Shown in pieces: positions 23,875 through 27,163 of a DNA stretch of 60,248 bases (position 1 is the stretch's first letter; every line of letters starts with the position of its first letter). This DNA comes from Candidatus Aenigmatarchaeota archaeon (GTDB lineage Archaea > Aenigmatarchaeota > Aenigmatarchaeia > PWEA01 > JAGHBM01). The notes under the pieces were generated by a model. The model was not told the DNA's origin, searched no databases, and saw nothing but the letters and a program-made list of their open reading frames with translations. Location: contig JAGGZI010000040.1 of assembly GCA_021162085.1 (NCBI GenBank), forward strand, positions 1 through 60,248, in the 5' to 3' direction. A program made the translations under genes and the position numbers.

Positions 23875-24119
23875 TGGTGCGGGGGACGAGATCTTCGTAG
23901 GGCGATAAAGCTTTCTTTCGCTGTTTCGAATTCACGGATCCATTCTTTTTCACACATGCCTCAAAGTTTCTTTTCCCTAGAGGCTTTTCTTTGTGAAAGA
24001 AAAGGCTCTCTCGCGAAGCGCCTACGCGCACAAGGCCCTCAACCTTGCCCCATATCCAATTGACTGCACAAACTTAAGCTTCATGCAGGCCAATTTTTTG
24101 ACCACTCGGGCACCCCCGC
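23875..24119 (-). tRNA. tRNA-Leu(GAG), class II, encoded CCA, three predicted introns (D-loop, 53/54, 59/60)
   Basis: Minus strand reads GCGGGGG-UG-CCC-GAGUGGUCAAA[~45 nt]GGG-G-CAAGG-UUGAGGG-CCUUG-U-GCGC-GUAG-GCGC-UUC-GCGAG[79 nt]UUCGAA[33 nt]U-CUCGU-CCCCCGC-A-CCA. Acceptor stem is perfect. The spliced product would be about 88 nt, like known archaeal tRNA-Leu. Confidence 0.75.
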
Positions 24120-24179
24120 ACGCTAATATTTATATACTTCATTCTTTTTATCTTTATTTAAAATTATAAGGTGTGAAAA

Positions 24180-25325
24180 ATGCATACTAATTTTCTCAGC
24201 ATAAGAAAAATCGGATTGAATAAAGAGATTAAAGAGATATATCTCAATCGTTTCTTGCAGAGCTTCTCTCTTGGTTTAATAGGAATATTTGTTCCAATTC
24301 ATTTAATGAGAATAGGTTATTCATTAAATCAAGCAATTACATATCTTATAATGATATATCTTGGGATGATGATTTTTGTTCCATTAGCTTCCAAGATCAG
24401 TTCCATAATAGGGATAAAGCACACGATATCTATAACATTTCCAATATGGATTCTCTATTTTTATCTCCTTTTTTCTCTAAAATTTCCAGACTCTGATTAT
24501 CTCCTTATAGGTATGTTGTATGGGCTTGCAAACGTAATTTATTGGGTACCATTAAACACAGATTTCTCAAGTAATGTAGAAAAGATAAGAATAGGCGAGG
24601 AATTCGGTATAATGAGAATAATACCATTTTTAACCAACATGATAAGCCCTCTCGTTGGAGCGTTCATAATAACGTACATGGGATTTGATAACCTCATAAT
24701 TGTTGTGTGTTTATTACTTCTGATATCTTTGGTTCCACTGTTCCTAACAAAGGACTACAAATTTAAGTTTGGTTATGATTGGAAGAAAATGTTCAACAAG
24801 AAGCACTTTGTATTTCTCGGCGATTTTATTATGAAGGGAATCATATTCGGCTCAAATGTTCTCTGGCCCATATATGTTTTCATTTCATTTGGCTCTAGGG
24901 GTGTTATAAATGTTGGTTTGGCAGCTTCATTTGGAGCAATCGGCTCCATAATATTCACATTCTTTGTTGGTAGTCTATGCGACAGGTATGACAAGGTCAA
25001 ATTACTTAAAATGGGTGGTCTAGCTAATTTCGTTGTATGGACATCCGCTATAATTTTTGTTTCACCGATGGCAGTTCTATTGCTTTCCTTCATTAAGGGA
25101 CTTTTATTCATTCTCATAGACATGCCTATGTTCATCATAGCGTGTGAGCAAACTGACAACAAGAACAATATAGAGTTCATGTCATTTAGAGAGATAGGGC
25201 TTTGTACAGGAAGATTAATTATACTCGCTCTTGCTTTTCTGAGTATACTTTCACTTAAATTCCCTACGGTATTTTTAGTTGCATCTATTGCTTCGTTGTA
25301 TTTTACTCTCTCAAGGATAAAGTGA
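24180..25325 (+). CDS. Polytopic membrane transporter, MFS-like
   Basis: About 12 hydrophobic segments in two halves separated by a KDYKFKFGYDWKKMFNKKH loop. No specific subfamily recognised. Confidence 0.55.
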   Translation: MHTNFLSIRKIGLNKEIKEIYLNRFLQSFSLGLIGIFVPIHLMRIGYSLNQAITYLIMIYLGMMIFVPLASKISSIIGIKHTISITFPIWILYFYLLFSLKFPDSDYLLIGMLYGLANVIYWVPLNTDFSSNVEKIRIGEEFGIMRIIPFLTNMISPLVGAFIITYMGFDNLIIVVCLLLLISLVPLFLTKDYKFKFGYDWKKMFNKKHFVFLGDFIMKGIIFGSNVLWPIYVFISFGSRGVINVGLAASFGAIGSIIFTFFVGSLCDRYDKVKLLKMGGLANFVVWTSAIIFVSPMAVLLLSFIKGLLFILIDMPMFIIACEQTDNKNNIEFMSFREIGLCTGRLIILALAFLSILSLKFPTVFLVASIASLYFTLSRIK

Positions 25326-25326
25326 G

Positions 25327-26514
25327 CTATCTTCTCCAGTTTCTTTTATATTCATATCTGAAAGAATTTCTGTTTTTCCTATTTTCGTAGTCCCTCTTGA
25401 ATTTTAAGATTTTTATGTCTGGAACTTCCATTTTCTCTATGTTGTAAGAGAAAGTTGTTATTATCTTTCTGAATGAACTATGGTCATCCGTGGTTAATAG
25501 GGATATCGCCTTTCCTGACTTTCCTGCCCTTGCAGTTCTCCCTATTCTGTTTGTATACTCATCTGGATTTTTCGGTATGTTGTAGTTGAATATGTGGGTC
25601 ACACTTTCTATGTCAAGTCCTCGAGCAGCTACATCGGTTGCAACAAGGATATTGATTTTTTTGTTGCGGAATTTCTCGATAACCTTTTCCCTTCTTTGTT
25701 GTGATAGTCCACCATGTAGTGCTTCAACATTTATGCCATTCTCCATGAGATTTCTTGATACGGAGTCCACGTATCTTCTGGTATTACAAAAGACTATTGC
25801 AAGGCTAGGAGTTTCCTCTTTTATAAGATGAACTAGCAATGAGAACTTTCTCCTGTAGTCAATATCACAATAGTATTGCTTTAGTAAGCTTTCTTCAACT
25901 TTATTTCTTGTCTTTATCCTTTTGGGATTTTTTGTGAATCTGGTTGCAATTCCTTTCAAATTTTCTGGCATGGTGGCGCTGAAGAGCAGAGTCTGTCTTT
26001 CCTTAGGTAGATTACTTTCGATTCTTTTTATATCGTCTATGAATCCCATGTCTATCATTCTATCCGCTTCATCCAAAACGAATATCTTAACGTTACTTAA
26101 ATTCATGTTTCTTCTTCTTATGTGGTCGAGTAACCTTCCAGGTGTCCCAACAACTATTTCGGCATTGCTCAATCCTCTTATTTGAGGTTCCATTGAGACC
26201 CCTCCATAGACTGTCTGCACATGGATTTTTTTCTTGCTGGAATACTCTCCTAAGTTTTTTGCTATCTGCAATACCAACTCTCTTGTCGGTGCTAAGACCA
26301 GTGCTTGAATCCCTCGCCCCTCAACGACTTTTTCTACCAATGGTATTCCAAAGGCAGCGGTTTTTCCAGAACCAGTCTCGGACTGCCCTATAACATCATA
26401 ACCCTTTTTAATTATTGGTATTGTTTCGTGCTGTATTTTTGTCGGGTTTTCAAATCCTATTTCATTCAACGAATCCAAGATACTCTCTTCAATATTCATA
26501 TCTTTAAATTTCAT
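25327..26514 (-). CDS. DEAD-box ATP-dependent RNA helicase
   Basis: Q-motif region, GSGKTAAF, PTRELV, VLDEADRM, SAT, ARGLD and HRIGRTARAG-type (NRIGRTARAG) motifs. Confidence 0.92.
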   Translation of the reverse strand: MKFKDMNIEESILDSLNEIGFENPTKIQHETIPIIKKGYDVIGQSETGSGKTAAFGIPLVEKVVEGRGIQALVLAPTRELVLQIAKNLGEYSSKKKIHVQTVYGGVSMEPQIRGLSNAEIVVGTPGRLLDHIRRRNMNLSNVKIFVLDEADRMIDMGFIDDIKRIESNLPKERQTLLFSATMPENLKGIATRFTKNPKRIKTRNKVEESLLKQYYCDIDYRRKFSLLVHLIKEETPSLAIVFCNTRRYVDSVSRNLMENGINVEALHGGLSQQRREKVIEKFRNKKINILVATDVAARGLDIESVTHIFNYNIPKNPDEYTNRIGRTARAGKSGKAISLLTTDDHSSFRKIITTFSYNIEKMEVPDIKILKFKRDYENRKNRNSFRYEYKRNWRR

Positions 26515-26664
26515 GTTATCAACTCCTAATAAAAAGTCACAAAAGCAATAGAATTAGTATTATAAACTAACGCTATTTGACACGATTTAATATCGCGGCT
26601 CTGTACTTTTTGTTTTTAAAACTATTAGCATCGTTAAGTATTTAAAGGTTAAAATTGGTTAAAT

Positions 26665-26951
26665 TGGTGCTCCCGCCGGGAGATTTCCAGCACGAAGCAC
26701 ACTACGTGTGCTTCAACCCCTTTCCATCAACATCACCAAAGTTTCTTTGGAAGTACAGAAACTTTCTTTGTGAAAGAAAGGATCTGTTTTGAACCCGGGT
26801 CTCGAGCTCTCTCCAAAGTTTTAGTTTTGCTTAAAGCTTTTTCTAAAAACTTACGAGAGGCTCGCATCCTTAGCCATTGTCCAAACCTTCCTTTTCTTTT
26901 CCTGAAGGATTTCTTTTTGTGAAAAAGAAAGGCTTCCTAGACTACGGGAGC
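26665..26951 (-). tRNA. tRNA-Glu(CUC), encoded CCA, three predicted introns (D-loop ~58 nt, 37/38 45 nt, 59/60 ~106 nt)
   Basis: Minus strand reads GCUCCCG-UA-GUCU-AG[intron]AAUGGCUAA-GGAU-G-CGAGC-CUCUCG[intron]A-GCUCG-AGAC-CCGGG-UUCAAA[intron]U-CCCGG-CGGGAGC-A-CCA. It closely parallels known archaeal tRNA-Glu. The spliced length would be about 78 nt. Confidence 0.7.
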
Positions 26952-26990
26952 ATTCTTAATTCATTATGTATTTTGCATTTTTATTATTTT

Positions 26991-27163
26991 TGGCGGGCCT
27001 GGAGGGACACTCAAAAGTTTGTCGACTTAGTGTAGTCCAAGTTTGTGCATCCAACTTCACTCGAACCCCCAATCTCTCGGTTTCTTAGATACCTTAGTTT
27101 TGATGAAACTTTTTCTAAAGTTTCTCCGAAGCCGAGCGCGTTATCCAGTTACGCTACAGGCCC
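26991..27163 (-). tRNA. tRNA-Arg(UCG), encoded CCA, two predicted introns (37/38 44 nt, 59/60 ~52 nt)
   Basis: Minus strand reads GGGCCUG-UA-GCGU-AACUGGAUA-ACGC-G-CUCGG-CUUCGG[intron]A-CCGAG-AGAUU-GGGGG-UUCGAG[intron]U-CCCUC-CAGGCCC-G-CCA. The spliced length would be 77 nt. Confidence 0.75.

Follow-up and report, generated by a model that had tools for sequence, protein, structure and literature searches.

The stretch of DNA studied here (hereafter the window, 60,248 nucleotides (nt) in all) is contig C39 of a metagenome-assembled genome (MAG) of about 0.8 Mb from an Aenigmatarchaeota archaeon of the DPANN group (G000; 789,653 bp in 58 contigs, 37.4% G+C, completeness 87.5%). Its minus strand carries genes for tRNA-Leu(GAG), tRNA-Glu(CUC) and tRNA-Arg(UCG), none of which is detected by ARAGORN or Rfam and all of which are broken up by short introns (Table 1). 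One intron of the Leu gene and two of the Glu gene contain the same kind of pyrimidine/purine hairpin, which turned out to belong to a structured module that recurs in tRNA and rRNA genes of this genome. This intron module, its probable mobility and the splicing enzymes that may deal with it are the subject of the present work.

With introns allowed, ARAGORN reported 4 tRNA genes in the genome, and the Rfam tRNA model gave 13 weak, partial matches; both tools (ARAGORN with and without introns) were dropped, and a scan for a 7-bp acceptor stem followed by discriminator and CCA, with a tRNA-like 5' end, was used instead together with a custom cloverleaf solver. The scan gave 39 genes, and a 40th was found split over the ends of contigs C16 and C51. 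All 40 are interrupted (lengths of 139-391 nt), the count of uninterrupted tRNA genes in G000 being zero. Removal of the inserts restores a canonical cloverleaf, by means of the solver in 35 of the 39 genes and by hand in the remaining four, and the introns placed by the solver fall in the T-loop (33, consistent with position 59/60), the anticodon loop (23) and the D-loop (15). In the two Leu genes and in Pro(GGG), introns at 53/54 and at 59/60 enclose a micro-exon of only 6 nt (TTCGAA or TTCAAA). Gly(UCC) has a 15-nt intron within the anticodon stem. The micro-exons of the Leu(GAG), Leu(UAA) and Pro(GGG) genes correspond to T-loop positions 54-59 (loci G000:C26:22545-22869 and G000:C23:9394-9662 besides the window), and for Leu(UAA) an alignment to the Leu gene of the window favours TTCGAA over TTCAAA. 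The end of C16 and the start of C51 both stop within a single tRNA gene; about 90 nt of module sequence are common to the two contigs, and it is at this repeat that the assembly is broken.

In the 5' to 3' direction, the element begins at the first intron nucleotides with one strand of an outer stem (4-5 nt), and continues with a pyrimidine arm (Y, e.g., CCUUUCUUUU), a loop of 3-4 nt and a purine arm (R1), after which come the other strand of the outer stem with 1-3 nt more, a mirror purine tract (R2), a conserved CUU and, last, a second hairpin that varies between copies. A previous reading of this DNA made from its letters alone (the sequence-only reading) had described three copies of one CAC-loop hairpin and a second recurring motif in the Leu, Glu and Arg introns, and all the strings that it quoted were found on the minus strand at the places where it had put them. 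The hairpin is indeed well above chance, with 4 matches to YTTTCTTTCACAAAGAAAR in the window at up to three mismatches (two sites, each of them scored on both strands) against 0.45 in shuffled sequences, none of which reached 4 in 100 trials. The hairpins are thus real, but the CAC loop is not their defining feature, since CAG, CAA, AGA, TCAA and TTGA loops are found elsewhere. The second motif had a similarly mixed fate. As an independent module, GAAACUUUG was rejected because the bare motif is at chance level; GAAACTTTG with at most one mismatch has 31 occurrences in the window, where 29.4 are expected, and its exact copies in the whole genome amount to 17 against roughly 10 expected from a composition estimate. 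The copies of GAAACUUUG in the Leu intron and in the Glu T-loop intron are nonetheless part of the module, where they lie at a fixed distance 3' of the hairpin and correspond to the 3' end of R2 plus the conserved CUU. The copy in the Glu anticodon intron and both Arg copies have no adjacent hairpin (the pyrimidine/purine hairpin is missing from both Arg(UCG) introns of the window), and the homology of these three copies to the module, the 'AAACUUU' strings of Arg included, is not shown.

Table 1. Interrupted tRNA genes, introns and module copies of the window (contig C39), followed by the ribosomal RNA inserts on contig C4.
Feature	Position	Strand	Details
tRNA-Leu(GAG) gene	23875..24119	-	245 nt, encoded CCA; paired acceptor stem, cloverleaf rebuilt by hand
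Leu(GAG) D-loop intron	about 24052-24096	-	without module
Leu(GAG) 53/54 intron	23931..24009	-	79 nt, module-bearing
Leu(GAG) micro-exon	23925-23930	-	6 nt, TTCGAA
Leu(GAG) 59/60 intron	23892-23924	-
Leu module core	23962..24009	-	covariance-model match C39:23963-24012, E = 1.5e-11; outer stem AGAG../..CUCU
Hairpin of Leu 53/54 intron	23985-24003	-	loop CAC
Leu module Y arm	23996-24004		CUUUUCUUU
Leu module R1 arm	23984-23992		AAAGAAAAG
Leu module R2 tract	23967-23975	-	GAAAAGAAA, after the spacer; perfect mirror of the R1 arm (9/9); CUUUG next
tRNA-Glu(CUC) gene	26665..26951	-	287 nt, three introns
Glu(CUC) D-loop intron	about 26876-26936	-
Glu D-loop intron module	26890..26936	-	covariance-model match 26889-26939, E = 4.7e-6
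Hairpin of Glu D-loop intron	26911-26929	-	UUCUUUUU-CAC-AAAAAGAA
Glu D-loop module R2-like tract	26890-26902	-	GGAAAAGAAAAGG, imperfect mirror (8/9)
Glu(CUC) 37/38 intron	26809-26853	-
Glu(CUC) T-loop 59/60 intron	26682-26787	-
Glu T-loop intron module	26736..26787	-	outer stem ACAGA/UCUGU; nhmmer match 26719-26781, E = 8.5e-11
Hairpin of Glu T-loop intron	26762-26780	-	CUUUCUUU-CAC-AAAGAAAG
Glu T-loop module R2-like tract	within 26736-26750	-	CAAAGAAA, within the second hairpin CCAAAG-AAA-CUUUGG; mirror 7/8
tRNA-Arg(UCG) gene	26991..27163	-	173 nt
Arg(UCG) 37/38 intron	27082-27125	-
Arg(UCG) T-loop intron	27008-27059	-
16S rRNA intron module	C4:9923-9967	sense	covariance model R1
Second 16S rRNA intron module	about C4:9257-9320		nhmmer and by eye
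23S rRNA insert with module	C4:14653-14778		125 nt where the model has 1 nt, model position about 2628

In the whole genome, 55 perfect pyrimidine/purine hairpins with arms of at least 7 nt were found, against 3-14 in 20 Markov shuffles. As many as 42 of them fall inside tRNA loci (1.8% of the genome in all) or no more than 60 nt away from them, and the remaining ones are mostly in the 16S rRNA or in the split tRNA gene of C16/C51. The hairpin is present in 28 of the 33 T-loop introns, in 10 of the 15 D-loop introns and in 3 of the 23 anticodon-loop introns. Nearly all T-loop introns start with a strand of 3-8 nt, CCYUUUCUU, a loop, AAGAAARGG, the complement of the first strand, AGGAAAGAAC-UUG and a variable second hairpin. 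The core TTTCACAAA has 41 genomic occurrences, about 22 of which are full modules located directly 3' of exon sequence and alignable over some 65 nt. Profiles built with nhmmer recovered only 23-26 copies because loop length varies, and a covariance model (model R1, its name being shared with the purine arm) was used instead. This model has 41 matches in G000 that correspond to 38 distinct sites, once two weak antisense matches to palindromic hairpins are set aside and one site counted at both ends of the contig break is taken as one; at all 38 sites the module is sense to the host RNA gene. The module is found in some 30 tRNA genes, within introns of the D-loop and of positions 53/54 and 59/60, and also in 3' trailers, the 16S and 23S rRNA genes and a single spacer between protein genes. 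The intron family independent of position that the sequence-only reading suspected does therefore exist, as D-loop, 53/54 and 59/60 copies match one covariance model with E-values of 1e-9 to 1e-15, and the search for free copies that it proposed gave one between two protein genes (C23:37713-37809). Four trailer modules start right after the CCA, and three of these (C23:8487, C23:9347 and C26:23601) occupy the entire spacer that precedes the following tRNA gene; C54:6643, a fifth copy in a trailer, comes from the hairpin scan only. No published description of the module was found in the literature searched.

The structure of the module is supported by its own variation. An alignment of 32 copies made with MAFFT was structurally inconsistent, and a subset of 20 rows was used, in which a 14-bp stem is 85% paired. 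In this alignment, both members of the pair are changed in 31 stem cells; shuffles gave 10.5 and none of 500 reached 31, slid controls scored lower, and RNAalifold arrived independently at the same stem. The outer 4 bp alternate between AU, UA, CG and GU, with G-U in 6 of the 20 copies at one position, and this frequency of G-U pairs points to pairing at the level of RNA.

A new observation of this work is that the R2 tract mirrors the R1 arm, so that three tracts co-vary. If the purine arm is written as A(a)-G-A(b)-G and the R2 tract as G-A(c)-G-A(d), a mirror corresponds to (c,d) = (b,a). Among copies parsed from G000 and 20 related genomes, R2 was an exact mirror of the R1 arm in 66 of the 88 asymmetric copies, and the direct arrangement was never found (0/88). 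Each of the classes (2,3), (3,4), (4,3), (5,3) and (5,4) comes with its own mirror, and variants with an extra C/G retain it, as in the ortholog of the window Leu intron in G003, with tracts CUUUCUCUUU, AAAGAGAAA and GAAAGAGAAAA. In the same line, 81 of 122 copies have a perfect mirror at 3-24 nt downstream, whereas permutations in which hairpins and downstream sequences were re-paired gave 36 on average and never more than 50. A Watson-Crick pairing between the Y arm and R2 was discarded as the cause of this covariation, since direct repeats of R1 would then be favoured, and these were never observed. R2 is a parallel complement of the Y arm and antiparallel-identical to R1, as A.A-U and G.G-C triples require. 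The sequence pattern of the mirror tract points towards an additional fold, either three-stranded or of a switching kind. In a triplex the spacer would have to serve as a loop; it is, however, the 3' strand of the co-varying outer stem, with only 1-3 nt beyond it, which makes both folds look mutually exclusive; they could represent two states of the RNA, or else an RNA fold and a DNA fold. It must be kept in mind that purine-motif triplexes with an RNA third strand are disputed (PMC7583470). As a tentative proposal, which we regard as possible but would not favour, Y, R1 and R2 may form a purine-motif triple helix (A.A-U, G.G-C), be it in the RNA of the intron or in DNA that is transiently single-stranded. 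In alternation with the extended hairpin, this fold would be the functional core of the element, and would either drive its insertion or recombination into new sites or act as a switch by which the 5' splice site is presented to EndA. If true, no extended purine-motif triplex with evolutionary support would have been known from nature before, and protein-spliced introns would have a concrete mechanism by which to move; the module is, in any case, a candidate backed by covariation for a type of nucleic-acid triple helix so far unestablished in nature.

Sequence comparisons make the mobility of the element, as advanced by the sequence-only reading, well supported, through near-identical copies (93-100%) in unrelated contexts, a filled/empty site and intron differences between orthologous tRNAs. 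The intergenic copy is 97.9% identical over 97 nt to the copy in the 23S intron, and different tRNA genes have intron segments in common with identities of 100% over 76 nt, 93.5% over 199 nt and 93% over 102 nt. In G001, a genome of the same genus, the two genes that flank the intergenic copy abut and the element of about 92 nt is absent, G000 reading ..CCGTA[AAGC...TTAAGTA]GGTGG.. and G001 ..CCGTAGGTGG.., with a GTA repeat at the edges of the insert. Short direct repeats are also seen at the 16S (CGCGAAA, C4:9250-9330) and 23S (GCAGC, C4:14653-14778) inserts, and all of these could be target-site duplications, microhomology or splice-site ambiguity. As for orthologous tRNAs, the one with a CAU anticodon (5' end GCCUGGG) has a D-loop module in G004 and G007 and none in G000, whereas the T-loop module intron of the C16/C51 gene of G000 has no counterpart in the G004 tRNA with the same 3' end, whose T-arm is intact (orthology being taken here from the 3' end alone). 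The Leu(GAG) 53/54 module is found at the same site in G001 and G003, the latter without the 59/60 intron, and the Arg(UCG) gene of G003 has no 37/38 intron and a different T-loop intron of 190 nt, this one with the hairpin. These comparisons concern few loci, and the direction of change in them is unrooted.

Carriage by viruses was considered and rejected, as the 7 IMG/VR contigs showing the tract pattern (6 phage contigs of high G+C, about 63-65%, with one common hairpin, and a single contig of low G+C, 39%) never have it in a tRNA context and are deemed unrelated. In the high-GC phage contigs (L179-L183 and L185), CCCUUUCUUCCCGAAGAAAGGGGACGGAAAGAAGGG lies in a G+C-rich stretch 3' of a conserved coding-like region, with the same order of pyrimidine, purine and mirror-purine tracts in an unrelated, terminator-like context.

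The module is not restricted to G000. At E <=1e-3, covariance model R1 detected it in 30 of 61 related genomes, including 7 of 7 from the same family, and at E <=1e-6 in 20 of 151 genomes of a phylum-wide sample, where its presence is patchy by family. In these relatives the module occurs in the T-loop, the D-loop, 37/38 and 53/54, and the highest copy number is that of G000. Genomes bearing the module gave 5-8 matches to the tRNA model, against 27 in a family free of it, a comparison made on a small sample of related and thus non-independent genomes.

With regard to the splicing machinery, G000 encodes a single catalytic EndA subunit of about 182 amino acids (PF01974, 97 bits) and an RtcB ligase (PF01139, 584 bits). 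The EndA protein aligns from end to end with the alpha4 enzyme of M. jannaschii (1A79), has an insert, KLKKGPKSAKEH, that resembles the one in the alpha subunit of N. equitans (3IEY_A), and has its nearest relatives (up to 79% identity) in other Candidatus Aenigmatarchaeota MAGs. A beta subunit was not found, although no in-depth search was devoted to it. Another EndA-like match on C5 falls within an ORF (open reading frame) of 265 amino acids with no other sign of EndA, and was taken as spurious and unrelated (aldolase-like). The hairpin sits at the first nucleotides of the intron, and because it abuts the inferred 5' cut it is plausible, judging from its position, that it helps to place the endonuclease. 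At the other end of the intron, a 4-bp helix between T-loop positions 54-57 and the 3' end can be drawn by eye for Gln, for Lys(UUU) (C41:8400) and for the long T-loop introns, and for Lys(CUU) with 3 of the 4 pairs.

Altogether, we think it probable (about 0.7) that the hairpins are the core, of some 45-65 nt, of a family of short non-coding intervening elements that is mobile, has multiplied in this Aenigmatarchaeota lineage and is tolerated thanks to EndA and RtcB. New copies would arise by insertion of DNA, and would be kept in stable-RNA genes only where EndA can excise the intron from the transcript and RtcB rejoin the exons. Moreover, the element may aid in its own removal, the hairpin supplying the intron-side helix of the 5' cleavage bulge, and in the 59/60 introns T-loop positions 54-57 would pair with four nucleotides located 2 nt before the 3' cut to form a relaxed helix-bulge-helix substrate. 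Several points weigh against this proposal. Minimum-energy folds gave no canonical bulge-helix-bulge motif (BHB) and left both splice sites in single-stranded segments of a multiloop. The splice sites themselves come from the reconstruction of the cloverleaf, with an ambiguity of 1-3 nt. The element could not be linked to any transposase, homing endonuclease or reverse transcriptase, and a route through reverse transcription was rejected given that the 87.5%-complete G000 has no RVT_1 match. Furthermore, near-identical copies at the same position could come from gene conversion among existing introns with no new insertion, G001 could have lost the element by precise deletion, which would account for the filled/empty polymorphism, and a version of the module in about half of the sampled relatives may mean that the similarity is partly old and held by selection rather than due to recent movement.

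The simplest alternative, that the similarity reflects nothing but a low-complexity, A/T-rich composition, was the outcome that the sequence-only reading had named as its refutation, and we consider its probability practically nil. The genome has 37% G+C, and the bare 9-mer GAAACTTTG stays at its chance frequency; the hairpins, however, exceed shuffle counts 4-18 times with three-quarters of them within 1.8% of the genome, the E-values of the covariance model go down to about 1e-14, and the stem shows compensatory changes, so that for the hairpin module shuffles and stem covariation rule composition out. A second proposal of the same reading, a kink-turn (K-turn) or L7Ae-type site, is very improbable, and so is the view of the hairpin as part of an intron-encoded C/D box RNA. 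Some archaeal tRNA introns do encode C/D box RNAs, and CUGA and GUGA strings occur in the long 3' blocks of some of the introns, but the module consensus has neither C nor D boxes; it is a fully Watson-Crick, A-U-rich stem with a bulge of at most 1 nt, devoid of the 3-nt bulge and tandem G.A pairs of a K-turn, and Rfam has no match for it. More serious is the view that the module is an immobile signal of the host, selected at each site to position EndA or an accessory protein, and that its copies resemble each other through shared function and gene conversion. The recurrence of the module in the same contexts in 30 of the 61 related genomes, its fixed distance from the 5' cut, its constant sense orientation and the orthologous Leu 53/54 copy in three genera would all fit such a role. 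We nevertheless find it improbable, since one copy with 98% identity sits between two protein genes, a place that calls for no tRNA processing and that is unoccupied in a congener; copies from different positions of tRNAs resemble each other more than their host tRNAs do, introns have been gained, lost or swapped among orthologous tRNAs, and the mirror tract has no known role in recognition by EndA.

A further possibility, which we hold to be rather unlikely, is that the three-tract motif acts in DNA, where as a single strand or as H-DNA it would form an intrastrand triplex that stalls replication or promotes recombination and in this way generates new copies, with the RNA hairpin doing no more than making the insertions tolerable. 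In this regard, the succession of Y, loop, R, loop and mirror R is the architecture of class II purine-motif triplexes, and the bacterial TMECO/PIT motif, whose folding was seen in vitro with single-stranded DNA, is linked to local variability of the genome (PMC4666352). The dispute about RNA third strands (PMC7583470) and the use of the triplex-loop spacer by the outer stem of the RNA, which suggests that both folds may belong to different molecules, favour it as well, and the insertion or deletion of DNA is seen directly at the G000/G001 site. On the contrary, the G-U pairs of the outer stem point to pairing in RNA, TMECO triplexes went undetected in vivo (PMC4666352), and all copies in RNA genes share one orientation, which is not required of an element acting purely in DNA, although selection for spliceability could impose it.

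The mobile, spliceable element that we favour has its closest parallel in the transposing tRNA introns of Thermoproteales, described as short, ORF-less, protein-spliced introns of multi-intron genes, whose movement at the DNA level was inferred and its mechanism unknown (Fujishima et al. 2010, Mol Biol Evol 27:2233; PMC4090602). Both systems show highly similar introns clustered across different positions of non-homologous tRNA genes, short ORF-less introns, multi-intron genes and presence/absence differences between close relatives. The host here is, however, a DPANN archaeon with a single alpha-type EndA and an L3-type loop, in contrast with the (alpha-beta)2 enzyme and Crenarchaea-specific loop of Thermoproteales; all the tRNA genes found are interrupted, the core is structured with three co-varying tracts, copies extend to rRNA genes, tRNA trailers and a protein-gene spacer, and a filled/empty pair is documented. 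For DPANN archaea, Kaneta et al. 2018 dealt with EndA of broadened specificity and linked an insert of this type, which they name the L3 loop, to increased disruption of tRNA genes (PMC5829648). Our case resembles theirs in the alpha-type EndA with its Nanoarchaeum-like, lysine-rich insert and in a tRNA set that standard finders cannot complete, and departs from it in that neither a conserved intron module nor the tRNA genes of Aenigmatarchaeota were described there (PMC5829648), and in that a canonical BHB cannot be drawn here for most sites.

For the mirror tract, the comparison is with the class II intrastrand triplex motif known as PIT, BoxC or TMECO, with consensus CCCTCNCCC N3-6 GGGNGAGGG N3 GGGNGAGGG (Holder et al. 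2015, PMC4666352), which as a single-stranded DNA fold was seen in vitro, was undetected in vivo and marks variable loci (PMC4666352). Both are multi-copy, vary between close relatives and share the order of pyrimidine tract, loop, complementary purine, loop and mirror purine. Unlike the proteobacterial, intergenic PIT/TMECO with its G/C-rich CCCTCNCCC.. consensus, the module is archaeal, A/U-rich (of the CCUUUCUUUU type) and transcribed as part of tRNA and rRNA genes, where its distance to a splice site is constant; moreover, its second 'loop' is 6-12 nt long instead of 3 nt and pairs upstream of the pyrimidine tract, and its putative three-stranded fold is supported by three-way covariation only.

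Intron transposition was proposed for Thermoproteales in 2010, and how ORF-less, protein-spliced introns reach new positions has stayed open since then; a recent census of Asgard archaea again found no general route of arrival (bioRxiv 10.64898/2026.10.13.758758). The present case offers for this question a tRNA set that is fully interrupted among the genes found, a structured module with testable parts (the outer stem, the stem of pyrimidine and purine arms, and the mirror tract), copies outside RNA genes and a filled/empty pair, and the triple-helix signature of the three co-varying tracts may bear on how such introns move. The interrupted genes also account for the failure of standard tRNA finders in DPANN genomes of this kind.

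Some observations fall beside this family. The RNase P RNA match (G000:C4:15554-15939) has 386 nt against a model of 288 positions and may hold an insertion, with no match of covariance model R1 to it. In the 16S-23S spacer there is a tRNA-Ala(UGC) gene (G000:C4:11407-11658, minus strand) placed on the strand opposite to the 16S (C4:8913-10653, plus) and 23S (C4:12002-15131, plus) genes, and the hairpin loop of its 131-nt T-loop intron contains two extra nested hairpins, an insert that is also found in the 23S intron and in the intergenic copy. Long T-loop introns (e.g., G000:C23:42227-42529, C26:23243-23595, C26:26216-26505, C47:7736-7985 and C53:1394-1608) have a common 3' block, ..GGAAGGGAAGAUAUCAGGAAUACCGUAAAACUGAAAGGAACCGUAGGUUCCUUGCGGGUUCGUGA, which ends in a T-arm-like copy of GCGGGUUC whatever the T-stem of the host, and looks like exon-like sequence carried between genes. 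Introns of the anticodon loop (37/38) contain a second family with core CCCUUUACUCGGCGUAAAGCG-UCAACGGAAACUGGCUUGGUGAA (G000:C16:5203-5401, C23:9104-9299, C11:13176-13371 and C23:42227-42529), which is internally duplicated in two genes and reaches 93.5% identity over 199 nt between two different tRNAs. In the window, finally, the Leu gene is separated from the Glu and Arg genes, themselves 39 bp apart, by the genes of a multi-pass membrane protein (24181-25326, plus strand) and a DEAD-box helicase (25340-26520, minus strand).

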